From assembly GCA_964387845.1 (NCBI GenBank), contig CAYLXA010000003.1, positions 1 through 64,000 on the forward strand: 64,000 nucleotides of DNA. Reading direction: 5' to 3'. This document shows, one piece after another, positions 1 through 16,288 of the stretch. The stretch comes from an uncultured bacterium. GTDB lineage: Bacteria; Omnitrophota; Omnitrophia; Omnitrophales; Abzuiibacteriaceae. A program made the translations under genes and the position numbers. Under the pieces are notes generated by a model that saw nothing but the letters and a program-made list of their open reading frames with translations, searched no databases and had not been told where the DNA came from. Each line of letters starts with the position of its first letter. The first letter of the stretch is position 1.

Positions 1-3000
1 AACAGTGTGACTTATCAGTTAAAGAATATCGGAGGTAGAGTGCTTTATTGGGAAGCATCAGAACCTTCCGTCGATTGGTATACGGTCTCTCCTTCAAGCG
101 GTACCTTACAAAGAGATGAGCAGGTCACAGTAACAGTTGCTTTCAGTCAAGATGCTAATTTACTGCCTGTGGGCAGTCATACGGATCAGGTGATCTTCAC
201 CAATACGGCCAGTGGGTATACGGTTGCAAGTGAACTAGATACGCCTGTTCAATCCACCCAGATGAGGGATGTGAGTTTGGAGATTAATCAAGCGTGCGAT
301 GACGGGAATGCGTGCAATGGGGCTGAAACCTGTGGTGCAGGAGGCGGATGTCAGGCTGGAACCCCTTTAACTTGTGATGACAACAATGTGTGTAACGGTA
401 TTGAATCTTGTGACTCTGTTAATGGTTGTCAATCGGGAACTCCTCTTTCGTGTGATGATGGTCAATTCTGTAATGGTGCTGAAACCTGCGACCAGACAGA
501 GGGCTGTACACCAGGAACAGATCCGTGTCCCGGGCAGAATTGTGATGATATGAATGATCAATGTATCAGCAACAACGAACCGCCGGTGGTAGATGCAGGC
601 CTTGATCAAACCATTCAACTTCCGAATGCGACCATGCTGGACGGGATTGTAACCGACGACGGACTGCCCGAACCATCCGAAATCACAACCTTGTGGCTGA
701 AATACAGCGGCCCGGGGAACGTTATGTTTTCGGAAGATTATTCGACCGATACATCAGTCAGTTTTTCAATAGACGGTGTGTATGTTTTAAGACTTTATGC
801 CAGTGACCGCGAAGCAGAAATATTTGATGATGTTCAAATCACCGTACTTCCTGAATGTACATCCGCCGCTGATTGCAATGACGGAAATGCGTGCACGGAA
901 GATATTTGCACTGCGAGAAGCGTTTGCCATGATGGGCAGCCGAATTGCACGCCGACTCCGAGCCGTTGCGAAAATCGGCCAAGGCCCTCCGGATTCTCAT
1001 GTTCTGACGGACTTTTCTGCAATGGTGCTGAAACCTGCAACGCCAACCAAGTTTGCCAACCCGGCACGCCGCCCAATTGCTCGGGCTTGAATGATCAATG
1101 CAACACCGGAATTTGCAACGAAACAACCGACCAATGCGTCACGAACCCGGTTGCAAACGGAACCATTTGTGACGACGGAAATGTGTGTACGCTGATGGAA
1201 CGCTGCTTAGACGGCGCATGCCAATCCGACATGATGGCACCGGGCTGTATTCCCTGCGATGAGGATTCGGACTGTAATGACAACAACGCTTGCGACGGAT
1301 TGGAACTTTGTCTGGCCGGACGCTGTCAAAACGGCATTCCATTAAATTGTGATGACGGAAACGCCTGCACGGCGGACAGCTGTCACCCGACTGACGGCTG
1401 CATGCACACGCCGATTCCGGATTGCATGTCTTGCGAAACCGATATTGATTGTAACGACGGAAATGTTTGCACAAGCGATTCGTGCTCCGGCGGAATCTGC
1501 ACTCACGGAAACCTGCCGCAAGGAACTGCCTGCTCGGACGGCACATTCTGTAACGGCGCTGAAACTTGTAACGGAGCGGGCGTCTGCGTGCCGGGGTCAG
1601 CTCCGGATTGTGAAGATATGGATCCGTGCACAAACGACAGCTGTAATAGTTCGACCGACTCGTGCGTTCATGACGCGATTCCGGATTGTCAAAGCTGCAT
1701 GAGCCCTGAAGAATGTGACGACGGCAATCCGTGTACCGATGAAAATTGCTTAACGCCGGTTTCCGGATCATTGGGAACCTGTATGTATTTCGATGCAGAA
1801 GACGGCAGAATTTGTGACAGCGACAACGATGTTTGTGACGGAACCGATACCTGCCAGGCCGGACAGTGCGCACCGGGCGATCCGCTCGATTGCGATGACG
1901 GCGATGCGTGCACGGCGGACAGCTGCAACCAAACCGGCGGCTGCATACACACACCGATTCCGGACTGTATTTCGTGCCAAACAAACGCACAATGCGATGA
2001 TTCCAATCCCTGCACTTCGGATATCTGTGCTCCGGAAGGTTCATGTTCTAACGAACCGGTCGCCAACGGCACCTCCTGCGCAGACAGCAATCTCTGTAAC
2101 GGTGCAGAGATTTGCCAAGCCGGAGTCTGTGAGCCCGGAACGCCGCTGAGTTGTAACGATGGAAACGTTTGTAATGGTGCTGAAACATGCAATCCAGTAT
2201 CAGGCTGTCAAGCCGGAACACCTCTGAGTTGTAACGACGGAAATGTATGCAACGGTACAGAATCTTGCGACCCGGCGCTTGGATGCCAGGCCGGAACGCC
2301 GTTGACATGTGATGATGGAAATGTGTGTAACGGCACGGAGAGTTGTGACGCCGCACTTGGGTGCCAAGCCGGTACACCGCTCACTTGTGATGACGGAAAT
2401 ATTTGCAACGGAACTGAAACATGCAACACAACAACCGGCTGTCAGACCGGAACGCCGCTCATTTGCAACGACGGCCTTTTCTGCAATGGATTAGAATCGT
2501 GCAGCCCGGCACTCGGGTGCCAAGCCGGGTCAAGCCCATGCCCCAGCGACGACGGGCTTTTCTGCAACGGAAATGAAGTCTGCGATGAAACAATTGATCA
2601 ATGTCAAAGTACGGGAAATCCGTGCCCTCCGGGCGAAACGTGCGATGAGCCGACCGATCAATGCTTGAGTGCCAATAATGCGCCGCCGGTAGTGAATGCA
2701 GGGTCGGATGCGTCTATCCCAATCTCCGGAACTATGAATCTTAATGGGAGCGCGACAGACGACGGGTTTCCAAATCCGCCGGCCACATTGATCACAACCT
2801 GGACTAAACAAAGCGGGCCCGGCAATGTTACGTTTGGAAATGAGAATGCGCCGCAAACAACAGCAACTTTCTCGGCTATGGGCAACTATGTACTGCGTTT
2901 AACTGCCGACGACAGCGCGCTTCAAGCGTTTGATGAAGTGACGATTCGGGTCACGCCCAATGTTTCAATTAGCCCCGGCCAATCGTATCACCGCAAAGGA

Positions 3001-5826
3001 TTTACGATGACTTTCCGGGATCAAAACGGAAATCCATATAACATCGGCGCTCAATATGAAGACACGTGCGTGATGTTCCGCGCAATCGGAAAATGGTTTA
3101 ACGACAGCCACTATGAGCCAATCGAGTGCGGCCTTGACGGAAACTATTATTATTGCGAAGACTTAAAAGCAACAGGGCCAGTTTATATTCGGTCCGAAAT
3201 TCCCGGCGGTCCGGACAGCATTATGACGGAACCAAAATGGCTTAGCTCAAATAAATTAAAAGCTTATGTTCCTAATGTTGATTTTTCCAAAGCGAGCTGT
3301 TCAAATCCACAAGATTCTTATGACGTGCAGGCTTACCATTTTGCGGTAACGACCGATTGCGAAGCGTACAAAAACGGCCCAATCGCGGAATTAGGCACTT
3401 ATCGCGTCGACCGCGATCCGATGCAGACATTAAACGGATTCTACGCCAATAAAATCTCGATTGATAAAATTTATATCGGCGGTTATCCGACCACTGCAAA
3501 CGGCGGAGCTGGCGAGCCTTTCTACCTCGACAATCCAAACGCCGATCAGCACATGCAGCCGTTTACAACCGCCAGCCCTGCTTATTCTGCTTACTTAAAA
3601 ACAACACCGTCCGTTGATCAATTGTTGGATTACGCAGCTTACCGAAGAGGATGGACGCAGTGTCTCGGTATGGGATGCGGATATGGCGTTCATTATGGCG
3701 GCGGAGAATATTCTGGCGCCTTTTCTCCAAAAGGAAGCCCGGCGGTTTTTGAAGTCTTAACCGGCACTCATTTCTTAGGGCCTACACCGTTTAATTTTGA
3801 TCATCCGAACCAGTGCGGTGCCAACTTTCCTGTTACACAGTTCAACACAGGCTGCGCTCCCGTAAAATGTGATGCCGGCTGGAAATACGATGAAAATTCA
3901 GGCTACGGAAATGAGGGCTGTTTTTATAATGCAATTATCCAAGATTCATACTCATGTCCTGTCGCATTCAATCCATACGTTAACGGAATAACGGTGGGAA
4001 TGCAGCAGCCGGTTTATGCGCCCGGTCAGCTTTCAGCAACCGAGCGGGAAAATCTTGCATTCGACTGGGATGGCAGCGTAGATGTTTATGAAGATATTTG
4101 GGTTATGCATGACGTATTAGGTTATTCAAAATTTGTCAGTCATCATGAAAATTGCTCGGAATATACTCAGGTCAGAATTAAAAATGAATGGTATGTCAAT
4201 GACCCATTCTTTAATCACTCGCTGTGTGAGGGCAGTCTAACCTGCGCCGGAACGCCAAATCCTCCCGCCTGTTACATTCTTGATACTGACTCAGGCAATA
4301 ATGGTTGCAATCCTGCAACCGGGACATGGATTTATAAACCTGGGGACAACGGCACTGCATGCAATGACGGCCTTTCATGCACAACGGGAGATGTGTGTGA
4401 TACTGGTGTTTGCCGCGGAGTTTCCAACTGTGATGACGGAAATCCCATGACATCGGACTCTTGCAATCCAAGTACAGGATTGTGTGAATCAACCGATCAC
4501 TGTGTCGAACAAAATACGGAATGCCGTGTTTCTACCGGGCAGTGCGGCGCTGACGGCCAATGTGTTTTTGAGAATTTGCCGGACGGAACTTCATGCAATG
4601 ATCAGAACGCCTGCACAAGTGCAAGCACATGCCAAGCCGGTGCATGTGTTTCAACTATCCCGCCTGATATGATCTGCAATGACGGCTTTACTTGCACTAT
4701 TGATACTTGCGATCCATTGATCGGATGCATTCAGATTCCGGATAATACTCAATGCACATTTCAGGGCAATCAATGCAAAACATTTATATGCGACCCTTAT
4801 TACTCAAGCCCGAACGGCTTTGAATATCCCAATCCTATAACAGGCTGTGTTGAGGGAGAGCGTCCTCCAGTTGCGCCGGCACCAGGCGCGGAATGCACCA
4901 ACCCAAGCAGCTATCCGGAGCAAGGCGACATGTGCGCGGCTGGTGAAGCATGTAGTGCAAGTTGTCAATGTGATTCGCTTTGCGGAAACGGCGTGTGGGA
5001 TCATCAAGCCGGCGAACTGTGCGATCCGACGGTCCCGGCTGGTAGCCCCGGTCATTATTACAACCCAATCGGAGACGATATCCGAATTTGTCAAAGTGAT
5101 TGCATGCCATGCGACAGTTGTGGCAACGGAACCGTGACAGCCGTTCTTGGAGAAGAATGCGAAATAGACCCTACGGCAGACGCGATGGACATTTGTGGAG
5201 ACCCGACTTCGGTAGGTCCGTCAACGCGAGGGGAATGCCGGTATCAATGCGCCAATGGCTGGCAAGATGGTATTTTGCAGGAAACGCCTGATGAGGTACC
5301 GTGCAACCCGGCCACTTTTTTATGTCCCGATGGAATCACAGAGTGTCATCCCGAATTTGCTCCCTGCCCTGTCCCGCCGGGCGAAACGTGTGATCCGCTA
5401 ACATCAGACGGCAGCAATGAAACTATTTGTGGAGAATCAACTCCCGGCGTTATCAGTCAAGGGTGCAGTCTTTATGATCCGTTTGGATCAGGCCATTATT
5501 ATTCCAGCTGCCGATGCACATCCGTAAAAATTATTCCGCAAGGGCCGACATTGGAAGACCGCGCATGTGATCTTGGCGTTACCTCGATTGACCCTTCTAT
5601 GTGGCTTGCTCCAGCGCAAACAGATCAATGCAAATTTGGATGTGTTGAAGTTTATGCCGCTCAAGGATGCCGCGCATCAACACCCCAAAATCCGTGTACG
5701 TGTTACGGGATCACAGAATGGCAAGAATATTTTCCCGAATTAGTTCCTATGGGTGGCGGCACGTTTTACCGGGTCATCAGCACTTCGGCCTGCATGGCTT
5801 CAGGAGAACCAATACCCGGAGAATAA
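1..5826 (+). CDS. Giant secreted Cys-rich repeat protein (adhesin-like), 5'-truncated at the window edge. It has more than 40 Cys-rich repeats of the form CxDGNxCNGxExC...GCQxGTPL, two PKD/Ig-like inserts (VVDAGxD...TDDGxP...SGPGNV), a unique central domain of about 420 aa, and C-terminal CGNG...GEECD repeats of the Myxococcus cysteine-rich repeat type.
   Basis: The ORF is open to position 1 in frame and there is no signal peptide at the apparent start, so the 5' end lies outside the window. The repeat pattern is highly periodic in the translation. Stop codon TAA at 5824-5826. Confidence 0.85.
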   Translation, partial: NSVTYQLKNIGGRVLYWEASEPSVDWYTVSPSSGTLQRDEQVTVTVAFSQDANLLPVGSHTDQVIFTNTASGYTVASELDTPVQSTQMRDVSLEINQACDDGNACNGAETCGAGGGCQAGTPLTCDDNNVCNGIESCDSVNGCQSGTPLSCDDGQFCNGAETCDQTEGCTPGTDPCPGQNCDDMNDQCISNNEPPVVDAGLDQTIQLPNATMLDGIVTDDGLPEPSEITTLWLKYSGPGNVMFSEDYSTDTSVSFSIDGVYVLRLYASDREAEIFDDVQITVLPECTSAADCNDGNACTEDICTARSVCHDGQPNCTPTPSRCENRPRPSGFSCSDGLFCNGAETCNANQVCQPGTPPNCSGLNDQCNTGICNETTDQCVTNPVANGTICDDGNVCTLMERCLDGACQSDMMAPGCIPCDEDSDCNDNNACDGLELCLAGRCQNGIPLNCDDGNACTADSCHPTDGCMHTPIPDCMSCETDIDCNDGNVCTSDSCSGGICTHGNLPQGTACSDGTFCNGAETCNGAGVCVPGSAPDCEDMDPCTNDSCNSSTDSCVHDAIPDCQSCMSPEECDDGNPCTDENCLTPVSGSLGTCMYFDAEDGRICDSDNDVCDGTDTCQAGQCAPGDPLDCDDGDACTADSCNQTGGCIHTPIPDCISCQTNAQCDDSNPCTSDICAPEGSCSNEPVANGTSCADSNLCNGAEICQAGVCEPGTPLSCNDGNVCNGAETCNPVSGCQAGTPLSCNDGNVCNGTESCDPALGCQAGTPLTCDDGNVCNGTESCDAALGCQAGTPLTCDDGNICNGTETCNTTTGCQTGTPLICNDGLFCNGLESCSPALGCQAGSSPCPSDDGLFCNGNEVCDETIDQCQSTGNPCPPGETCDEPTDQCLSANNAPPVVNAGSDASIPISGTMNLNGSATDDGFPNPPATLITTWTKQSGPGNVTFGNENAPQTTATFSAMGNYVLRLTADDSALQAFDEVTIRVTPNVSISPGQSYHRKGFTMTFRDQNGNPYNIGAQYEDTCVMFRAIGKWFNDSHYEPIECGLDGNYYYCEDLKATGPVYIRSEIPGGPDSIMTEPKWLSSNKLKAYVPNVDFSKASCSNPQDSYDVQAYHFAVTTDCEAYKNGPIAELGTYRVDRDPMQTLNGFYANKISIDKIYIGGYPTTANGGAGEPFYLDNPNADQHMQPFTTASPAYSAYLKTTPSVDQLLDYAAYRRGWTQCLGMGCGYGVHYGGGEYSGAFSPKGSPAVFEVLTGTHFLGPTPFNFDHPNQCGANFPVTQFNTGCAPVKCDAGWKYDENSGYGNEGCFYNAIIQDSYSCPVAFNPYVNGITVGMQQPVYAPGQLSATERENLAFDWDGSVDVYEDIWVMHDVLGYSKFVSHHENCSEYTQVRIKNEWYVNDPFFNHSLCEGSLTCAGTPNPPACYILDTDSGNNGCNPATGTWIYKPGDNGTACNDGLSCTTGDVCDTGVCRGVSNCDDGNPMTSDSCNPSTGLCESTDHCVEQNTECRVSTGQCGADGQCVFENLPDGTSCNDQNACTSASTCQAGACVSTIPPDMICNDGFTCTIDTCDPLIGCIQIPDNTQCTFQGNQCKTFICDPYYSSPNGFEYPNPITGCVEGERPPVAPAPGAECTNPSSYPEQGDMCAAGEACSASCQCDSLCGNGVWDHQAGELCDPTVPAGSPGHYYNPIGDDIRICQSDCMPCDSCGNGTVTAVLGEECEIDPTADAMDICGDPTSVGPSTRGECRYQCANGWQDGILQETPDEVPCNPATFLCPDGITECHPEFAPCPVPPGETCDPLTSDGSNETICGESTPGVISQGCSLYDPFGSGHYYSSCRCTSVKIIPQGPTLEDRACDLGVTSIDPSMWLAPAQTDQCKFGCVEVYAAQGCRASTPQNPCTCYGITEWQEYFPELVPMGGGTFYRVISTSACMASGEPIPGE

Positions 5827-7116: not shown

Positions 7117-7986
7117 TTAAGGAAAAATATCAACCCAAATGGCCTCGGGCCGGCAGAAAAAACGGAGGAACAAAACGCGGTTTGCACCGACGCCGCGCGA
7201 GGCAAAACAATGCATATTTTGCACCACATGATAACCATCGATGGTTTCCATCGGCAATTTTGCATCCCGCGAGAAACCGCCTACAAAGGGAATCCTGACT
7301 TGCCCGCCGTGATGATGGCCCGAAAAAACGCAGTCAACCGGATGCTGGTCTTTCAACTCAATAATTGAATCCAGCACGTGCGTCAGCACGATATTGAACG
7401 AATCACTTTTCATTCCGCTTAAAGTTGTCTCAAAATTGACTTTCTGCGTGATCGGATCATCCGTGCCGCCGACAACCATCGAAGCTCCGTTCACATTAAA
7501 TGTCTGAGAACTATTCTTGAGAACCAAAAATCCGGCGGCTTCCAGCGTCCGTTTCAAATCCGCAACCCGGTTTGGTGTTTTAGATTTTGACGATTGAATA
7601 AAAATATAATAAATCGAATCAAAAAACCCATAATCCCAGTAATCATGGTTGCCCATAATCGCAATTTTGGCAATTTTTGCCTTTAAACGGCTTAGAAATT
7701 TTCCGCATGGTTCAATTCCGGGATCGTGATCAATAATGTCGCCTGTCACAAATATAAAATCGGGCTCCATGGTTTCCAATTTCTTAAAAAAAGGCTCTTT
7801 CCATGAGTTGTGCTTTGCGAAATGGATGTCGCTCAAATGCAAAATCGAAATCGGCTTTGAAAGCTTTTTGGACGATTTAATCTGAAACCTGCGGATCCGG
7901 AACCAGCGGGGTTCAATCAGGTATGAATAAATCAGAAAGGTAAGAACGACTAAAAGCGGGATTGTATATTCGGCGTAGAAAATCAT
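7117..7986 (-). CDS. Calcineurin-like metallophosphoesterase, membrane-anchored
   Basis: LHLSDIHF (DxH), GDIIDH (GD), GNHDYWD (GNHD/E) and GHHHGG (GHxH) motifs. N-terminal TM helix. Confidence 0.8.
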   Translation of the reverse strand: MIFYAEYTIPLLVVLTFLIYSYLIEPRWFRIRRFQIKSSKKLSKPISILHLSDIHFAKHNSWKEPFFKKLETMEPDFIFVTGDIIDHDPGIEPCGKFLSRLKAKIAKIAIMGNHDYWDYGFFDSIYYIFIQSSKSKTPNRVADLKRTLEAAGFLVLKNSSQTFNVNGASMVVGGTDDPITQKVNFETTLSGMKSDSFNIVLTHVLDSIIELKDQHPVDCVFSGHHHGGQVRIPFVGGFSRDAKLPMETIDGYHVVQNMHCFASRGVGANRVLFLRFFCRPEAIWVDIFP

Positions 7987-8405
7987 TACGAGCCCAAAGT
8001 TCCGGAGTCGCGATTAATTAAATCAGCGGCTTTTTTATTATCATCCGTTGAAAATACGCCGACGATCTTAAAGCCATCGCCACTCGTTCCGTAAACATAG
8101 TTGACATTCACGCCTTCACTGCCGAGAAGTTTGACAACAGGCGCCAGCGTTCCGACTTTGTTTTCAAATTCAACAATCAAAACATCACGGTCTTCGATTT
8201 TTGGAACAAAATAAGAAAGCGCTTTTTTGGCTTTTTCGTGATCACGCGTCACGATTTGAAAGTAACCTTTGTCTTCGTACGTGTAAGCCGATAAATGAAT
8301 AATATAAATCCCCTGCTCCGCAAGCGCGAGCGTAACGCGGCCCAGCGTCCCGATCTCGTTCTTGGTAACAAAATGTATTTCTTTTCCGATTTGAGCTCTA
8401 GCCAT
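7986..8405 (-). CDS. ACT-domain protein (tandem ACT domains)
   Basis: Two ~65-aa beta-alpha-beta-beta-alpha-beta units with G-T-L/G-x-x-A motifs. ATGA stop/start overlap with the downstream phosphoesterase gene. Confidence 0.65.
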   Translation of the reverse strand: MARAQIGKEIHFVTKNEIGTLGRVTLALAEQGIYIIHLSAYTYEDKGYFQIVTRDHEKAKKALSYFVPKIEDRDVLIVEFENKVGTLAPVVKLLGSEGVNVNYVYGTSGDGFKIVGVFSTDDNKKAADLINRDSGTLGS

Positions 8406-8443
8406 AACTGCCTATAGATGTTCCAATCGTTTATTCATCAAAG

Positions 8444-8498
8444 TTATGGCTGGCCCTCGCGCTATTGATTGAATATAAAAGCGCGATGGGCGAGCCAT
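8444..8498. promoter_or_regulatory. Conserved palindromic element E, copy 1: GCCCTCGCGCT - ATTGATTGAATATAAA - AGCGCGATGGGC. It ends 40 nt upstream of the ACT gene start.
   Basis: A near-identical element at 12066-12120 lies at the same distance upstream of the FNR gene. Confidence 0.5.
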
Positions 8499-8516
8499 GA
8501 TTTACCTATAAATGTC

Positions 8517-8577
8517 TGTCATTCTGAGCGGAGCGAAGAATCTAGGTCTTAGATCCTTCACTTCGTTCAGGATGACA
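8517..8577. terminator. Imperfect 29-bp palindrome (CTGTCATTCTGAGCGGAGCGAAGAATCT ... AGATCCTTCACTTCGTTCAGGATGACAG) 10 nt downstream of the AKR stop. Probable terminator or REP-like hairpin.
   Basis: Arms read directly. The five mismatches are all transitions. Confidence 0.4.
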
Positions 8578-8587
8578 GGAGCTGCTG

Positions 8588-9553
8588 TCAATTATGATAA
8601 AACCCTTCCTTGAATATTTCGTCACTCTCGTAGATATCCTGAATTTTTGATATTTCTTCACTCGAAAGCCTCGGGTCTTCTACGGCCTTCAAATGATCTT
8701 CAACATGCTGAGCAGTTTTCATACCCGGAATCACGGTCGACACCGCTGAAAATGACAACACGTACTCCAGCGCCGCTTGCTTGAGGCTTACTTTTTTTGT
8801 ATCAAACGCATCTTGGATCCGTTTTACCTTGTCTAAATCTTTTAAATATTTATCACGCATCCAGCGATTGCGATGGTCCACTTTGTGAAATTTGCTGTCC
8901 GCCGTATATTTCCCCGTCAAAAGCCCGCAGGCCAAGGGTTCGCGCGCAAGAATTCCGATTTTATTCTTCTCGCACAATGGAAATAACTCCGGAACGGGAC
9001 GCTGGTCTATTAAATTGAAAATCACTTGTAGCGTATCGGACTTGCCGTTTTGGTTTGCGGATATTCCTTCATCAATCCGGTGAATGGAGGTTCCGTAGTG
9101 GAGGATTTTTCCTTCTTTCTTGAGTTCATCGAGAACTTTGTAAACCTCGCCTTTTTCGATTTCGTCGCGCTTTGGATTGTGAAGTTGGTAGAGATCAATA
9201 TGATCTGTTTTGAGGCGTTTTAAACTTTCGCCGCATGCGAAACGAATGTGCTCAGCTGAGAAATTTTTCTTGGTGCCGCCGTGATAAAAATCCCAACCGG
9301 CTTTTGTCGCAATAAAAACTTTGAGGCGTTTAGAGCTTTCTTTGAAGGTTTGGCCTATAAGCGTTTCGCTATGGCCGTCGCCATAAACATCGGCAGTATC
9401 GTAAAAAGTAATGCCGTGATCGTAAGCAAATGATAACGCTTTGAGGGAATCTTGATCGTTTGTTGGGCCATAGCCTGTTCCGCCGATGGCCCAACAACCG
9501 AATCCGAGTGAGGAAACTTCTTTTTTAGTTCGGCCTAATGTCCGAAACTGCAT
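8588..9553 (-). CDS. Aldo/keto reductase family oxidoreductase
   Basis: N-terminal LGFGCWAIGG and DTADVYGDGHSE motifs. Length is typical for an AKR. Confidence 0.85.
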   Translation of the reverse strand: MQFRTLGRTKKEVSSLGFGCWAIGGTGYGPTNDQDSLKALSFAYDHGITFYDTADVYGDGHSETLIGQTFKESSKRLKVFIATKAGWDFYHGGTKKNFSAEHIRFACGESLKRLKTDHIDLYQLHNPKRDEIEKGEVYKVLDELKKEGKILHYGTSIHRIDEGISANQNGKSDTLQVIFNLIDQRPVPELFPLCEKNKIGILAREPLACGLLTGKYTADSKFHKVDHRNRWMRDKYLKDLDKVKRIQDAFDTKKVSLKQAALEYVLSFSAVSTVIPGMKTAQHVEDHLKAVEDPRLSSEEISKIQDIYESDEIFKEGFYHN

Positions 9554-10620
9554 TAAACGCTGACTTTTTCTCGCTTGGGTGACGCTGAAGGATCAACGAC
9601 TTCGATTTTATCCAAGCCGCCGTATTTTTCCCACCAAGGACGGGCGCCTTTTTCTAAAATCTTGTTGAGGGCTTCGATATTCTTGACGCCGCGGTCATTC
9701 ATCCATTTTTCAAGCGCTGCCCCGCCTTCTTTGCCGTATACCGGAATACCTTCTTTCCAGGTTGCGCGGCCGCAAAGAACACCGGCCCAGTTGGTGCCGG
9801 ATTCGATCGCAAGTTCCAAGGTTTCGCGGAACACATTGTCATCAACACCGGCGCTTAAATAAATAAACGGCTTTGTCGCGACATCCGCGGCTTTCTTGAA
9901 AAGCTTCTTCGCTTCTTCACGCGTATAGGCAACCTGACCGGTTTTGTTGGCAGAAGAGCCTTGCACATACTCAATATTGATCGGAACTTCGACTTTCAAA
10001 ACGTCGACTTTGTATTGCGGCTTCGAAAATTCGCGCATCGAGCCGGTCACGAGCTCGGGTTTCTTTTTCGCGAACTCCAAACCTTTTTCATCGCCGCCTT
10101 TTGCGTCATAAGTGACAAACTCGAGGAAAAACGCAATGTCTTCGGCTTCGCACTCAGAACCAATGCGCTCAACCCACGCGTGTTTGATATCGTTGATTTC
10201 TTTGGTGTCTTCGGGTGTGTAATAAAGAAGAATTTTTACGGCGTCAGCGCCTTTGGCCTTAATGCGCTGAACGGATTCATTCACGAGTAAATCGGGAAGA
10301 CGGCCCGGCGTGTTGGCATCGTAGCCCGTTTTTTCATACGCGAGCAGAAGCCCCGCGTTTTTCGAACGCGCTTTCGCGGCCGGCAGGCCGAATTCGGGAT
10401 CGAGTAAAATCGCGGTTGCATGAGGAGTTAAAACTCTTGAAACGATGGTTTTGAATTCTTCCATCATCGCCTGCGTGACTTGCTTCGCATCGACGCCCTT
10501 GGCTTTCGCGATTGATTTTTGAAGCGAACCACGCTGATCCATGGCCGCTGCGGCGATCACGCCTTTTTTATTGGATAAATTCTTAATTCCCTGAAACTTC
10601 CCTTTTGTAATTTTGAACAT
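9553..10620 (-). CDS. Class I aldolase of the LacD family (tagatose-1,6-bisphosphate aldolase or sulfofructose-phosphate aldolase-like)
   Basis: Strong block identity to LacD over full length: AAMDQRGSL, LLDPEFGLPA, GLLLAYEKTGYD, GRLPD, ERIGSEC.AEDI.FFLE, DVLKVEVP, IYLSAGV, GVLCGRATW. Confidence 0.85.
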   Translation of the reverse strand: MFKITKGKFQGIKNLSNKKGVIAAAAMDQRGSLQKSIAKAKGVDAKQVTQAMMEEFKTIVSRVLTPHATAILLDPEFGLPAAKARSKNAGLLLAYEKTGYDANTPGRLPDLLVNESVQRIKAKGADAVKILLYYTPEDTKEINDIKHAWVERIGSECEAEDIAFFLEFVTYDAKGGDEKGLEFAKKKPELVTGSMREFSKPQYKVDVLKVEVPINIEYVQGSSANKTGQVAYTREEAKKLFKKAADVATKPFIYLSAGVDDNVFRETLELAIESGTNWAGVLCGRATWKEGIPVYGKEGGAALEKWMNDRGVKNIEALNKILEKGARPWWEKYGGLDKIEVVDPSASPKREKVSV

Positions 10621-10640
10621 GTTTTCTCCGTTAACCTTGT

Positions 10641-10961
10641 TTATAAAATAGAATCGATTTCGCTTTTCAAGCGGTCTTCCGGCTGAAAGCCGACAATTTG
10701 TTTAACGTTTTGCCCATTCTTAAAAAGAATGATGGTCGGAATGCCCTGAATGCCGAACTGCTGCGGCGTGTTTTCATTATCATCCACGTTCATTTTCCCG
10801 ACTTTGAGCTTGCCGCTGTAATCCTTGGCGATTTTCTCAACCACGGGGCCCAGCATTTTGCACGGCCCGCACCACTCCGCCCAAAAATCAACCAATACGG
10901 GAATTTTTGAGTCCAAAACTTCGGATTTGAAATTTGCGTCTGTAATCACTGATTCGCTCAT
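10641..10961 (-). CDS. trxA: Thioredoxin
   Basis: WAEWCGPCK active site. 106 aa. Confidence 0.9.
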   Translation of the reverse strand: MSESVITDANFKSEVLDSKIPVLVDFWAEWCGPCKMLGPVVEKIAKDYSGKLKVGKMNVDDNENTPQQFGIQGIPTIILFKNGQNVKQIVGFQPEDRLKSEIDSIL

Positions 10962-10979
10962 GTAAATCTCCTTGTCTAT

Positions 10980-11068
10980 GCTTCAAGCTTCAAGCTTCAG
11001 GCTTCAAGATTAAAGAATTGTGCCGCTTTAAGCTTGCGGCATGCAGCTTGTAGCTGCTTAACTTGCGA
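10980..11068. repeat. Intergenic inverted-repeat element, family B. The left arm is tandem GCTTCAAG/CAAGCnn heptamers, the loop is ~17 nt, and the right arm is tandem AAGCTTGnnGC units.
   Basis: Read directly. The same family occurs at 32806-32848/33218-33263 and 60664-60737. Confidence 0.7.
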
Positions 11069-11135
11069 ATGAGCTTCATATTATATAGCGATGGGTTCTT
11101 TTTGTCCATATAGCCATTTTTATCTGGAAATTGGG

Positions 11136-12026
11136 CTAGTAAACTTCAACCAAGAGGCGCTTTTCGGAGCGGAGAAATTCGGCAAAACCCTCGTTATTGA
11201 GGTCTTTGCCGATCATGTTGAGGAGCGGATAAATGCCGTCTTCCATTCCCTTTAAACCGCAAAGATAAATCAGACTGTTGCTCCGAGAGAAAATTTTGCT
11301 CAGGAGTTCGCGGTCTTCATACATTCTAACTTGTACGTACATTTTGTTTTGGCGGGTCGTGATAGCATTCGGATACGGGTTTGTCTCTTCGCGGCTGATG
11401 GCAATCGAATAATGAAAATTCGGATATTTCGCAGCGAGTGCTTTAAATTCGTTGTCATAAAGAATCGTGTCTTTGTAAGGAACGCCCAGGTAAAGGCAGA
11501 CTTTCTTTTTATAACCGGCTTCGAACATTTCAATCAACATGCCGCGAAACGGTGCAATGCCGGTTCCGGTTGCAACAAAGACGATATCGCGGTCCAGAAA
11601 ATCATCCGGCAATACAAAATGTTTTCCGGCGGGGCCCGTCATTTTGACTTGATCGTTCGGTTTTAAATCACAAAGGTAGTTGCTCGCAACACCCGGCTGG
11701 CGTTTTTGGCCGGTCTTGGGATTATCAAAAAAGTGCCGGACAACACAAATAGAAACCGTTTTGCCATCGCCTTTGTCACCTTTGCGCGTTGACGCAATGG
11801 AATAAAGCCTGAGGCCGTTTGGTTTTCCGCTGCGGGAATCAACCCCCGGCGGGATGATGCCCACGCTTTGGCCTGGAACGTACGGGTAATTGCCGTCAAA
11901 GCGGATGACAATGTGGCGCACATCATTGTCAAGCCCGTGCGCCGCGCCTGTAATCCGTTTGTTGTCAACAATCGTGCCGGACAACGGATTATTTAGTTTG
12001 TAAATATTAACTGCTAGTTCGGTCAT
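11136..12026 (-). CDS. Ferredoxin-NADP+ reductase (plant-type FNR family)
   Basis: RLYSIAS FAD-binding motif, GTGIAPFR NADP-binding motif, CLYLG. Confidence 0.85.
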   Translation of the reverse strand: MTELAVNIYKLNNPLSGTIVDNKRITGAAHGLDNDVRHIVIRFDGNYPYVPGQSVGIIPPGVDSRSGKPNGLRLYSIASTRKGDKGDGKTVSICVVRHFFDNPKTGQKRQPGVASNYLCDLKPNDQVKMTGPAGKHFVLPDDFLDRDIVFVATGTGIAPFRGMLIEMFEAGYKKKVCLYLGVPYKDTILYDNEFKALAAKYPNFHYSIAISREETNPYPNAITTRQNKMYVQVRMYEDRELLSKIFSRSNSLIYLCGLKGMEDGIYPLLNMIGKDLNNEGFAEFLRSEKRLLVEVY

Positions 12027-12065
12027 GATTCTCCTATAACAACCCGATCATTTATTCATTGGTAA

Positions 12066-12120
12066 TCATGACCGCCCTTGCGCTATTAGTTGTATATAAA
12101 AGCGCAACGGGCACTCATAT
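12066..12120. promoter_or_regulatory. Conserved palindromic element E, copy 2: CCGCCCTTGCGCT - ATTAGTTGTATATAAA - AGCGCAACGGGC. It ends 40 nt upstream of the FNR start.
   Basis: Paralogous to 8444-8498, with the same spacing to the downstream start codon. Confidence 0.5.
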
Positions 12121-12138
12121 GACTCCATTTTAAAGACG

Positions 12139-12213
12139 GACTTCGAACATCGAACCTAGAACATCATTTTCAGTATTGACCTACGTTCGAAGTTCCAGGT
12201 TCGAGGTTCGATA
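12139..12213. repeat. Inverted-repeat element, family A (TCGAAC heptamer arms), copy 2
   Basis: Arms 12139-12165 and 12183-12213 are read directly. Confidence 0.7.
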
Positions 12214-12234
12214 CTTTCTGCTATAATCCGCATT

Positions 12235-12624
12235 ATGAATGAAATTCGCCTCTTGCAATTCCTTATTTGTAAAGAATTTCGCGAAGAAGGTCAAGATGCT
12301 TATTGCGCGGGGTTTGTGCGCAGCAATCTCTATGTTCCCGAGTTTCCATTTTACCTGACCGACCTGCATGCTGTCACCTGCTGGCAGAAAGACGGGCGGT
12401 TTCACAAAGAAGTGATCGAATACGCCACCGATTACGGCGAATCGGTCAAAAGCCCGCATATGGACATTGAGCCGGCCAAAGGGAGTGTAATTTTCCGCTG
12501 GCACGCGCATCAATTTCCGACTGATTTCGCGATTGAGCGGCCGACCACTCTGACGGTTCGCGTGATTCTCGACTGGGAAGTCAAATTTGAATCACAGCTC
12601 ATGATTGAGAAACGACCGGCATAA
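12235..12624 (+). CDS. Hypothetical protein (129 aa) bracketed by two family-A elements
   Basis: A TATAAT at 12222-12227 lies only 7 nt before the ATG, suggesting a leaderless transcript. No recognisable domain. Confidence 0.4.
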   Translation: MNEIRLLQFLICKEFREEGQDAYCAGFVRSNLYVPEFPFYLTDLHAVTCWQKDGRFHKEVIEYATDYGESVKSPHMDIEPAKGSVIFRWHAHQFPTDFAIERPTTLTVRVILDWEVKFESQLMIEKRPA

Positions 12625-12913: not shown

Positions 12914-15508
12914 TTACGCATGAGTCCCATTAAAGCAAAAACCATTGCTTTTGTCATCTACAGAAACATGCACCGTATCGCCATCCTTGTAATCACCGGA
13001 AAGAAGCCGTAAAGCCAGCGGATCTTGGATGCCGCGCTGAATCAAGCGACGTAAGGGTCTTGCGCCATATTCAGGGTCATATCCCTCAAATGCTAGTTTG
13101 TCTTTTGCTTTCTTTTCAATCTTGATATGAAGATTTCGAGCTGCCAGTTTTCGATCAAGCTCTAAAAGTTCGAGTTCCACAATTTTTTGAATATCACTTG
13201 AAGATAATTTATTGAAAATTACTATTTCATCCAAGCGATTTAAGAATTCCGGTTTGAAATTCTTCTTCAACTCTTCCTGAATATTTTTCCTCAAAGATTC
13301 CTTAGACTCGACATCATTGAAATAATGTGAGCCGATGTTAGAAGTCATAATAATAACCGTGTTTTTAAAATTGACAACACGGCCTTGGCCGTCCGTTAAG
13401 CGGCCGTCTTCTAAAATTTGAAGCAGCACGTTAAATACATCCGGATGCGCTTTTTCGATTTCATCAAACAGAATCACCGAGTAAGGTCTCCGGCGAACTC
13501 GCTCTGTTAATTGTCCGCCTTCTTCGTAACCTACATATCCGGGCGGAGCGCCGATCAAACGGCTTGTGGAATGCTTTTCCATATATTCTGACATATCGAT
13601 CCGAATGAGCGCATTTTCATCGTCAAACAAAAACCACGCCAAACTCTTTGCTAAATAAGTTTTCCCGACTCCGGTCGGGCCCAAGAAAATGAACGACCCA
13701 ATTGGACGATTTATATCGGAAAGCCCTGAGCGTGAGCGGCGAACTGCATTTGAAATGAGCGAGATTGCCTCATCCTGACCGACCACGCGGGCTTGAAGCT
13801 GCTTTTCCATATGAACCAGTTTCTCGACCTCGCCTTGCATTAATTTTGAAACAGGAATGCCTGTCCATTTAGACACAATTTCCGCAATATCTTCTTCGCC
13901 AACTTCTTCTTGAAGCATTTTGCTTTTCTTTTGAATTTCCTGAAATTTTTTATTCTCGACTTCTAGCTTTTTTTCAAACTCGCGAAGTCTACCGTACCTA
14001 ATTTCGGCCACTTTATCCAACTTTCCTTCCTTTTCAAGGCGCGACTCTTCAAGTTTTGCTTTTTCAATATCTTCTTTAATTCGTCGAATTGAATCAATTG
14101 CCGCTTTTTCATTACTCCATCGAAGTTTCATTTCATCGCGTCTCGACTTAAGCTCGGAAAGTTCTTCCTCCAATTTTTTACGGCGATCCCCGGATGCTTT
14201 ATCGCTTTCTTTCTTCAATGCTTGTTTTTCAATTTCAAACTGCATGATCTTGCGCTCAAGAATATCGATTTCGGTCGGAAGGCTGTCGATCTCAATACGT
14301 AACTTGGAGGCAGCTTCATCAATCAGGTCAATCGCTTTGTCCGGCAAAAATCTATCAGTAATATAGCGATGAGAAAGTGTCGCGGCAGCAATAAGCGCAT
14401 CATCCTTTACTCGAACGCCATGAAAGATTTCGTAACGTTCTTTCAGGCCGCGCAAGATTGCGATCGTATCTTCAACCGTAGGTTCGCCGATAAAAATGGG
14501 CTGAAATCTGCGTTCAAGCGCTTTGTCTTTTTCAATATATTTTCTGTATTCATCAAGTGTGGTCGCGCCAATACAGCGAAGTTCTCCGCGTGCAAGCGCA
14601 GGCTTTAACATGTTGGAAGCATCGACAGCCCCTTCAGCTCCGCCGGCGCCAACAATAGTATGAAGTTCGTCAATAAAAAGAACGATTTCGCCGGCCTTCG
14701 ATTCAACTTCTTTTAAAACCGCTTTTAAGCGATCTTCAAATTCTCCTCGATATTTCGAACCGGCAACCATAGCTCCGATGTCGAGCGCTATAATTCGTTT
14801 ATTTTTAAGAAGTGTTGGGATGTCTCCATCTGCGATTCTTTTTGCAAGACCTTCTACTATCGCTGTTTTTCCGGTTCCCGGGTCTCCGATCAAGACCGGA
14901 TTATTTTTAGTACGGCGTGAAAGCACTTGAATTGCGCGACGAATTTCTGAGTCGCGGCCTATCACTGGATCCAACTTACCTTGCCTGGCAAGCTGTGTAA
15001 GGTCGCGGCCATATTTTTCAAGTGCTTGATATTTCTGTTCGGGATTTTGATCTGAGACACGATGAACGCCGCGCACTTCTTTCAATGCCTTCAGAATCGC
15101 ATTTCTTTCGATACCATGCTTTTTGAGAAGGGGCTGAAGCTTTGAATCTTTCTCTTGAGAAATCGCGAGAAGCAGATGTTCGATGCTTACATAATCATCC
15201 TTTAAAACTTCCGCTTCTCTCGCGGTTTGATCCAATAACTTCTTCAAATGCGGCGAAAAAAATGCTTGAGTGTCATTGCCCTCTACTTTTGGATTTGAAT
15301 CTATTAAACTTTGAATATCGTTCTGAAGCAAACCAACATTGGTGCCCAATTTTTGAAGAATGGGCACAGCAATTGAATCTTCGATTGTCAAAAGCGCCAG
15401 GAAAAGATGTTCCACTCGCACTTCTTGATTGCCGTGATTTCTTGCAATCTCAAGTGATGCTTGAACACTTTCCTGCGCTTTTAGTGTTAGCTTGTCCATC
15501 CTGAACAT
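12914..15508 (-). CDS. clpB: ATP-dependent chaperone ClpB (Hsp104 family disaggregase)
   Basis: Two AAA+ modules (GDPGTGKT and GPTGVGKT Walker A), a long coiled-coil middle domain and an N-terminal Clp_N repeat. 864 aa. Confidence 0.95.
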
Positions 15509-15523
15509 ATTACCCTCTTTCTA

Positions 15524-16288
15524 TTACTTCACTTCGATTTTTGGTTTTTCTTTCTTCTCTTCTGCCTGCGGAACTATTTTTGCAATTTTTACCACTAAGA
15601 CGCCATTTTTATATTCTGCGCTAATGTCATCCTGATTGGCATCTGCCGGCAGCGGAACAGCCCGGCTGAAAGACCCAAAACTTCGTTCGGCACGATAGAA
15701 ATTGCCGTGCTCGTCGGTTTCTTCCGACTCGGTTTTTCGGTTACCTGAAATTACAAGGAAATGATCCCTTACTTCTACATTAATTTGATCTTTTTCCATT
15801 CCCGGCAAATCAATTTTCACAACATAATGTGTATTTGATTCATCGACATCGATTTCCGGCTCATAAAAGGTGTGCTGTTCGAAAAAACCAGGTTTGGAAA
15901 AACTTGTCGCACGACTGAAACTATCGCGAAACATCCGGTTCATACGCTGCTGAATTTGCTCCATTTCATAAAATGGGTCATACTGATCAAAGCTAGATTG
16001 AAAGCTGAATGTAAATGGGTCAAAACTGCCAGCCGCAGAAGCACCGCTCAGCGCCTGCTGATGGCTGCGTATTTTTTCAGCTTTTGAATCAAATTTTTTA
16101 TCAGCTTTTCTTAGATCATGCGTTTTGTAATTTTTACTTTTTTGATCAGATTGAATTTTCCAAAGGTAAGCTGACTGGGTAATCAATCCAATGGTTAGGA
16201 TAATGACTAAGATGGTAAGTAACTTATTGCTCTTCATGATAAAATCCTCCTTACTTAAAACTAGGCCACCGGAACCCAAAGCCGGCAT
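15524..16288 (-). CDS. Hsp20/alpha-crystallin family small heat-shock protein with an N-terminal membrane anchor
   Basis: ACD core: YVVKIDLPGM...FYRAERSFGSFSRAVPLP...AEYKNGVLVVKI. Confidence 0.8.
   Translation of the reverse strand: MPALGSGGLVLSKEDFIMKSNKLLTILVIILTIGLITQSAYLWKIQSDQKSKNYKTHDLRKADKKFDSKAEKIRSHQQALSGASAAGSFDPFTFSFQSSFDQYDPFYEMEQIQQRMNRMFRDSFSRATSFSKPGFFEQHTFYEPEIDVDESNTHYVVKIDLPGMEKDQINVEVRDHFLVISGNRKTESEETDEHGNFYRAERSFGSFSRAVPLPADANQDDISAEYKNGVLVVKIAKIVPQAEEKKEKPKIEVK

Follow-up and report, generated by a model that had tools for sequence, protein, structure and literature searches.

In the tisB +42 mRNA, a 5′ stem-loop and a single-stranded region are both required for 30S/S1 binding (PMC6690012). 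The MS2 coat gene is a second experimentally shown case of such a standby arrangement, in which a 5′ stem-loop and a single-stranded tract accompany a sequestered ribosome-binding site (PMC5934652). Here, we analysed a stretch of 64,000 nucleotides from an uncultured bacterium of the Omnitrophota, family Abzuiibacteriaceae (assembly GCA_964387845.1, contig CAYLXA010000003.1, positions 1 to 64,000; hereafter the window), where a palindromic element precedes two minus-strand genes encoding an ACT-domain protein (site 1) and an FNR-type reductase (site 2). With roughly an even chance of being right, we propose that the palindrome is part of a lineage-specific, cis-acting mRNA leader of ~100 nt that hides the start codon of the FNR-type reductase and ACT genes.

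The consensus of the palindrome, GCCCTYGCGCT-N-AGCGCRAYGGGC, has exactly two matches in the 64-kb window (8453-8491 and 12074-12112, read on the + strand), compared with none in 100 shuffled sequences. A third copy was not found in these 64 kb, either by relaxed pattern searches or by a covariance model run with its filters off. The two-site motif of the original prediction is thereby established, but its dimensions have to be revised. The palindrome cores lie 47 nt from the minus-strand ATG at either site and the originally drawn borders of the element 38 and 39 nt from it, rather than exactly 40 nt. In place of ~55 bp, the conserved block measures ~95-100 nt and reaches the start codon via a conserved ATGAATAAAYGATYGG stretch (8423-8438 and 12044-12059) and TATAGG. 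The proposed extension of the stem by the flanking bases holds at site 1, where 6 bp are added, but amounts at site 2 to only four Watson-Crick pairs and two G.U pairs. Similarly, the -10-like TATATT/TATATA is indeed present in the loop, but a consensus scan gave no matching -35. Alignment of the two sites on the coding (minus) strand extends over ~100 nt and reveals the same order of parts: an upstream start (A-up, composed of a Shine-Dalgarno (SD) sequence, an ATG and one codon), a hairpin (P1), a 10-nt arm (A′), a box, TATAGG and the real ATG. In the window copies, P1 consists of an 11-bp GC-rich stem with a bulged purine in its 5′ arm and a 16-nt AT-rich loop.

A second helix, named P2, appeared upon folding of the sense strand, where A′ is base-paired to the -4 to +6 segment of the gene (A-down; partners in Table 1). 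This pairing is complete (10/10) in both window copies and in the related loci L127 and L129, and reaches 9/10 in L001b and L126; five related genomes thus retain it. The same arms were returned by a repeat search, lengthened to 17-18 nt at 82-83% complementarity. When each of the 58 gene-like open reading frames (ORFs) of the window was compared with the 100 nt upstream of it, a stretch complementary to its -4 to +6 segment at 9/10 or better was found for the ACT and FNR genes only, both at 10/10, and the best complement of all others did not exceed 8/10. A stable helix covering the start codon, which defines leaders that occlude the translation initiation region (TIR), was found in all gene-proximal copies, and both P1 and P2 were predicted by RNAalifold on the natural sequences as well as by single-sequence folds (RNAfold). 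In silico, the AUG of a transcript starting at P1 is paired with a probability of ~1.0, its probability of being unpaired staying between 0.00 and 0.05 from 15 to 55 °C. The fold becomes bistable when A-up is included, with a probability of an unpaired AUG at 37 °C of 0.37 in the window ACT copy, 0.92 in L001b, 0.03 in the window FNR copy and 0.06 in L127. The alternative pairing between A-up and A′ is weakly supported, poorly kept at the FNR site and not above shuffles.

Covariation of the stem, which the original prediction had named as a check, was assessed on a register-correct concatenation of the arms from five distinct complete copies and a partial one. For P1 and P2 jointly, 96.5% of the cells are paired and five pairs have changed on both sides. 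The covariation score of 0.218, against 0.111 in shuffles, was reached by none of 500 shuffles, and sliding the register lowers pairing to 35-43%. P1 contributes one co-varying pair (C-G vs U-A) and keeps its bulged purine in every copy. In P2, the change at the wobble base of codon 2 from GCT in the window to GCC in L127 is tracked by A′ (AGCCAT vs GGCCAT; L127 arm GGCCATAACT), and the upstream ACT copy of the start follows the same change. The FNR-type and ACT-type A′ arms differ from each other by transitions only. In the RNAalifold structure, the GG of the SD sequence is paired to CC in the FNR type; in the ACT type it faces UU, with which it forms G.U pairs. Read from the sequences, the FNR-type arm GGTCATGATT would make eight Watson-Crick and two G.U pairs with the ancestral ACT TIR AGTCATGGCC, so that a leader copied to the ACT gene would have been workable at once in sense RNA and then improvable. 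As judged from these pairings, the G.U route to a re-fitted arm is open to sense-strand RNA only.

The leader is also more constrained than its surroundings. At the FNR site, the window copy is 86% identical to that of L001 and 89% identical to that of L126; at the ACT site, window and L127 share 90% identity, rising to 100% in the box. By comparison, the 4-fold degenerate sites of the FNR and ACT genes are 40-47% identical among the window, L001, L126 and L127 (40% beside the ACT leader between window and L127, 41-46% beside the FNR leader). Between window and L001, identity drops to the shuffled level in the spacer separating the metallophosphoesterase (MPE) and PilZ genes (0.50) and in the one just upstream of the FNR leader (0.56). 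Taken with the compensatory changes in P2, conservation above synonymous sites and spacers supports the 5′ untranslated RNA element that the original prediction had offered as one of its two options.

In the mechanism that we favour, P1 would fold in the presumably transcribed leader as a stable GC-rich hairpin with its bulged purine and AU-rich loop, and P2 would form from the 10 nt directly 3′ of P1 and the -4 to +6 segment of the gene, burying the AUG. The SD sequence and the conserved AU-rich box of 19 nt would remain within the P2 loop, and translation initiation would thereby be kept low or conditional. P1 and the single-stranded box might act together as a recognition or entry platform. 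P2 would most likely be released by standby binding of 30S/S1, or by another factor that binds P1 and the single-stranded box. In the ACT leader, the first of the two starts, which has become a fossil as described below, may compete for the anti-start arm A′.

Several points weigh against this reading. A permanently occluded AUG would require an opener. Transcription of the region is itself presumed, and a transcription start site located downstream of A′ would sink the RNA model. The covariation stems mostly from a single split, between the ACT and FNR types, in few genomes, and one P1 pair of L127 is C.A on the sense strand where the antisense strand would have G.U. Besides, A′ might have arisen by inverted copying of its target in the very event that created the insertion, and template switching at quasi-palindromes can also preserve arm complementarity at the DNA level. 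Finally, a REP-like hairpin beside site 1 is likewise 91% conserved between window and L127, so that the high conservation of site 1 is on its own no proof of constraint.

Table 1. Coordinates in the window of the leader parts at the ACT site (site 1) and the FNR site (site 2).
Feature	Coordinates	Strand	Description
Whole leader cassette, ACT-domain gene	8400..8514	-	Fossil SD to real codon 2; aligns with the FNR-site copy
Fossil ACT start (A-up)	8493..8510	-	TATAGG 8505-8510; AATCATGGCT 8493-8502; fossil ATG 8496-8498
P1 hairpin, ACT	8453..8491	-	GCCC-A-TCGCGCT, 16-nt loop TTTATATTCAATCAAT, AGCGCGAGGGC
Anti-start arm A′, ACT	8442..8451	-	AGCCATAACT; perfect complement of 8400-8409 (P2 partner AGTTATGGCT)
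Single-stranded conserved box, ACT	8423..8441	-	TTGATGAATAAACGATTGG; 19 nt, within P2 loop
Real ACT TIR	8400..8416	-	SD-like TATAGG 8411-8416; A-down AGTTATGGCT 8400-8409; ATG 8403-8405
Whole leader cassette, FNR-type reductase gene	12021..12126	-	Aligns with the ACT-site copy
Fossil FNR start (A-up)	12113..12122	-	TCATATGAGT; fossil ATG 12116-12118, GGAG before it
P1 hairpin, FNR	12074..12112	-	GCCC-G-TTGCGCT, 16-nt loop TTTATATACAACTAAT, AGCGCAAGGGC
Anti-start arm A′, FNR	12064..12073	-	GGTCATGATT; perfect complement of 12021-12030 (P2 partner AATCATGACC)
Conserved box, FNR	12044..12063	-	ACCAATGAATAAATGATCGG
Real FNR TIR	12021..12038	-	SD TATAGGAG 12031-12038; A-down AATCATGACC 12021-12030; ATG 12024-12026

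The gene functions that the original prediction had assigned downstream of the two sites were recovered with Pfam. Site 1 is followed on the minus strand by the ACT-domain gene (7986-8405, its N-terminus MARA being kept in relatives), the MPE gene (7117-7986) and PilZ, and site 2 by the genes for the FNR-type reductase (11136-12026), thioredoxin (trx), a DeoC-type aldolase and an aldo/keto reductase (AKR, 8588-9553), all on the minus strand. These two sets, taken at first for unrelated operons, belong to a single syntenic cluster, FNR-(PTPS)-trx-DeoC-AKR-ACT-MPE-PilZ, as seen across relatives whose loci were retrieved via look-ups of homologous proteins. In two of them, L122 and L123, AKR and ACT either overlap or leave a gap of 9 nt (the latter in L122). 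Homologues are labelled Omnitrophica/Omnitrophota. The copy at the ACT site is an addition specific to the lineage, made at a junction that was ancestrally internal to the operon.

This position within an ancestral operon fits another function for the element, namely RNA processing or stability. P1, lengthened by base-pairing between the fossil start and A′, would serve as a 5′ protective hairpin or as a site for a double-strand-specific RNase that uncouples ACT, MPE and PilZ from the upstream mRNA and sets their relative levels. Hairpins at the 5′ end are able to protect mRNAs, as in the ompA leader of E. coli, and RNase III sites separate cistrons in phages T7 and lambda. P1 is very stable, with ~17 bp at site 1 when extended, and conservation at the FNR site begins just 5′ of P1, as if the transcript started there. 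What such a function leaves unexplained is the tracking of the first two codons by A′ and the conservation of the box sequence, and the A-up:A′ extension on which it relies is poorly kept at the FNR site, at a level not above shuffles. We consider it unlikely but credible as the explanation for the element; it is in any case compatible with a leader that occludes the start codon.

The surroundings of the cluster provided a few additional observations. Directly upstream of the cluster, the minus strand carries ClpB (12914-15508) and an HSP20-domain protein (15524-16288), and the order hsp20 - clpB - ... - FNR - trx is kept in related loci, which suggests, on the basis of synteny, a stress-response neighbourhood. 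A divergent ORF (12235-12624, +, 129 aa) without any Pfam match even at E<=1 occupies a position conserved in L001, L122, L123 and L124 (126-136 aa), and its product might be a regulator of the cluster. Between this ORF and the FNR leader, positions 12137-12211 form an inverted repeat of 14-nt tandem units (CGGACTTCGAACAT/CGAACCTAGAACAT and their complements) that has no counterpart in L001. An antisense gene for 6-pyruvoyl-tetrahydropterin synthase (PTPS) lies between FNR and trx in L122-L124 and is missing in the window and L001. The leftover FNR-trx spacer of the window (10962-11135, 174 nt) is 69% identical to that of L001, above other spacers. On the other side, a very large ORF (7-5826, +, with 1939 aa inside the window) runs convergently towards the cluster; the corresponding L001 protein exceeds 2898 aa and contains cadherin, Big_9 and PKD repeats.

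The distribution of the element is narrow and uneven. At the FNR site, it is present in L001 (89% protein identity) and in L126 (85%), whose contig begins inside P1. At the ACT site, it is found in L127 (89% protein identity), in L128/L131 (the window strain) and in L129/L130. It is absent from both sites in L122-L124 (64-66% FNR identity) and from the ACT site of L135/L136 (80% ACT identity). The ACT site is also empty in L001, L133 and L134, where a single TATAGGTAGTCATGGCC stands before the gene. Conversely, L001 carries before FNR a 98-nt unit (ATGACC...AAAATC) twice in exact tandem (9806-10000), and the second copy has for its fossil start the real-start segment of the first. That the L126 contig starts inside P1 may reflect the same kind of tandem repeat. 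Beyond this pair, a pattern scan of the 525-kb contig of the sister genome L001 gave no copy. Among JGI metagenome contigs, only that of L001 matched the pattern, IMG/VR returned 0 matches with two patterns, and a search of 126 kb of related loci with the covariance model added no copy to those already known. A stem-only pattern applied to genome contigs produced chance matches from GC-rich genomes, none of those listed having the AT-rich loop or the box. The common regulon initially put forward is not supported: there are two copies only, both in one conserved cluster, with none elsewhere in the 525-kb sister contig.

The duplicated start can be followed by comparing filled and empty sites. 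The ACT fossil start is a direct repeat of the real TIR, as revealed by the repeat search, and matches the lone start region at the empty site of L001, L133 and L134. In L129, A-up lies 13 nt past the AKR stop, similarly to the ancestral ACT start (9-nt gap in L122), and the fossil ATG is now ACG. At the other site, A-up is separated from the divergent ORF by 70 nt in L001, as against 50-68 nt at that place in element-free relatives; conservation between window and L001 starts at the FNR fossil ATG, and the tandem unit of L001 begins with ATGACC, the counterpart of the FNR fossil start. Since the position of A-up matches the spacing of the ancestral start, the cassette sits at both sites right after ancestral codon 2, bringing a new SD sequence and ATG. 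The initiation region is duplicated over 20-22 nt around a 72-nt insert, which also contains an inverted copy of it. It looks as if FNR, at the head of the cluster, had provided the copy now present at the internal AKR/ACT junction, A′ being afterwards re-fitted to ACT. This junction harbours other hairpins as well. The REP-like one mentioned above (8516-8578), which follows the AKR stop and precedes the fossil ACT start, has arms GTCATYCTGARCG...GAAGRATC (29 nt, 83% complementary), is the sole copy in the window and occurs in L127 but not in L129/L130. Unrelated hairpins are found at the same place in L001/L133, in L124 and in L135/L136, which designates the AKR-ACT junction as a hot spot for hairpin insertions.

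Such a history raises the question of whether the element is anything more than the footprint of a DNA rearrangement, such as an insertion or duplication resembling a miniature inverted-repeat transposable element (MITE) or template switching during replication, which survived without a regulatory role through the SD sequence and ATG that it brought or duplicated. The polymorphism in presence at the ACT site (empty in L001, L133 and L134; filled in the window, L127 and L129), the exact 98-nt tandem duplication in L001 and the uptake of several unrelated hairpins at one junction are all in line with this scenario, as is the ~20-22-nt direct repeat of the TIR that flanks the insert, A′ being its inverted copy. 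However, a mere footprint does not account for 86-90% conservation next to near-saturated synonymous sites and unalignable neighbouring spacers, nor for compensatory substitutions that post-date the insertion (window vs L127). It is equally at odds with the restriction to two sites per genome, without others in the 525-kb sister contig, the JGI metagenomes or IMG/VR. No transposase is known to yield ~22-bp target duplications. An origin by tandem duplication of the 5′ coding sequence was discarded, as the interior of the insert has no significant similarity to the coding sequence or its reverse complement. On balance, we regard a footprint devoid of function as clearly unlikely. A related and quite improbable idea is that of a portable module for translational control, which would enter after codon 2 and supply SD and AUG, leaving the old start as a fossil. 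Its A′ arm would be generated from, or fitted to, the initiation region of the recipient gene, and the module would have spread from FNR to ACT and expanded by tandem duplication in L001.

The second option of the original prediction, an operator dyad flanking a promoter, places the activity of the element in double-stranded DNA. The GC-rich dyad would bind a dimeric transcription factor, with a promoter in its AT-rich centre or in the box, and the two units would be co-regulated. In favour of this, the conserved AT-rich centre of the dyad contains TATA-like hexamers, the dyad keeps a fixed position with respect to the genes, the FNR copy adjoins a divergent ORF that is itself conserved, and a loop of 16 nt puts two helical turns (21 bp) between the centres of the GCGCT/AGCGC arms. 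Loop length is nevertheless not constant: 16 nt in four genomes (window, L126 and L127 among them), it reaches 21 nt in L001, where half-sites separated by such a centre would fall on opposite faces of the helix. This 5-nt difference fits a hairpin and argues against a dimer operator. In addition, the bulged base of every copy makes the dyad asymmetric, relatives keep the divergent ORF and the entire cluster without the dyad, and an operator offers no reason for a 10-nt arm to co-vary with codon 2. A sigma-70-like -35/-10 pair was not found on either strand at either site by a consensus scan, although this consensus may not be that of Omnitrophota. Altogether, the variable arm distance, the asymmetry and the codon-2 covariation make an operator very improbable.

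Other candidates were also considered. Searched against Rfam, the whole window gave no match at the gathering score, and relaxing the threshold to E<=10 for 8300-12400 returned chance-level matches only, none of them over P1 or P2. An intrinsic terminator or attenuator was rejected, with 0 terminator-like sites at either locus, a loop of 16-21 nt and a 3′ flank of CAGCCAUAAC or GGUCAUGAUU. A pseudoknot between the P1 loop and the box was dropped, since the complementarity that suggested it, seen by eye at site 1, does not extend to site 2 or to L001. CIRCE, Fur, PerR and Rex boxes gave no convincing match; in the loop of L001, GAGTGCAAA is similar to one CIRCE half-site, for which there is no partner half-site. 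An invertible switch between A′ and A-down is disfavoured on general grounds, their 32-nt spacer being too short for recombinase-mediated inversion. Lastly, the 8-mer CCCATCGC upstream of trx resembles a P1 arm but is at chance level and was not detected by the covariance model.

If the occluding leader is real, it would be among the first structured cis-regulatory leaders described in Omnitrophota, a phylum known almost solely from metagenomes, and would control an NADPH/ferredoxin-thioredoxin module located beside heat-shock genes. It also gives a clear snapshot of the copying of a leader within a cluster, with a visible fossil start and an arm re-fitted via transitions and G.U intermediates, the empty, single-copy and tandem states all being present among close relatives. 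Its practical weight is modest, as the element is limited to one genus-level clade and two genes.

To conclude, the locus can be placed among systems with which it shares part of its design. It recalls the co-transcribed intergenic repeats REP, ERIC and Neisseria Correia by its small size, its palindromic form, its insertion beside gene starts, a presence that varies between strains and a flanking duplication. It differs from them by having two copies per genome rather than tens to hundreds, a fixed orientation and start-codon register, one arm tailored to each gene, and strong conservation. The random orientation or REP-type dispersal against which the original prediction had asked to be checked was looked for, and a dispersed REP/MITE repeat was rejected: the window holds two copies in 64 kb, in one orientation, right after the fossil codon 2 and with a ~20-22-nt TIR repeat. 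RNA thermometers such as ROSE and fourU also bury the start region by cis pairing, and HSP20 and ClpB are encoded nearby here. Yet thermometers use weak, mismatch-rich helices, whereas P2 is a perfect 10-bp helix; a thermometer was rejected, since P2 stays closed up to 55 °C in silico. With ermC/cat attenuation and the 'Min Jou' occlusion of the MS2 replicase, the leader has in common three segments in which A′ may pair with A-up or with the TIR, and the upstream SD and ATG could load ribosomes. In contrast to these systems, the upstream ORF is not conserved and the A-up:A′ pairing only weakly so. A conserved leader peptide was excluded, the ORFs from the fossil ATG having 28, 27, 10 and 23 codons in frames that differ relative to P1, and the ATG being ACG in L129. 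In layout, the leader resembles tisB and the MS2 coat gene, where a stem-loop at the 5′ end and a single-stranded tract rich in A/U are likewise accompanied by a stable helix, tens of nucleotides further downstream, that masks the initiation region. Here, however, the loop of the occluding helix encloses the single-stranded box, housekeeping or stress enzymes are encoded rather than a toxin or phage protein, no antisense RNA is known, and the unpaired AU-rich box and P1 are candidates for a binding of 30S/S1 that would be independent of tRNA. The element would thus be a new, narrowly distributed member of the well-known class of leaders that act by occlusion of the initiation region.

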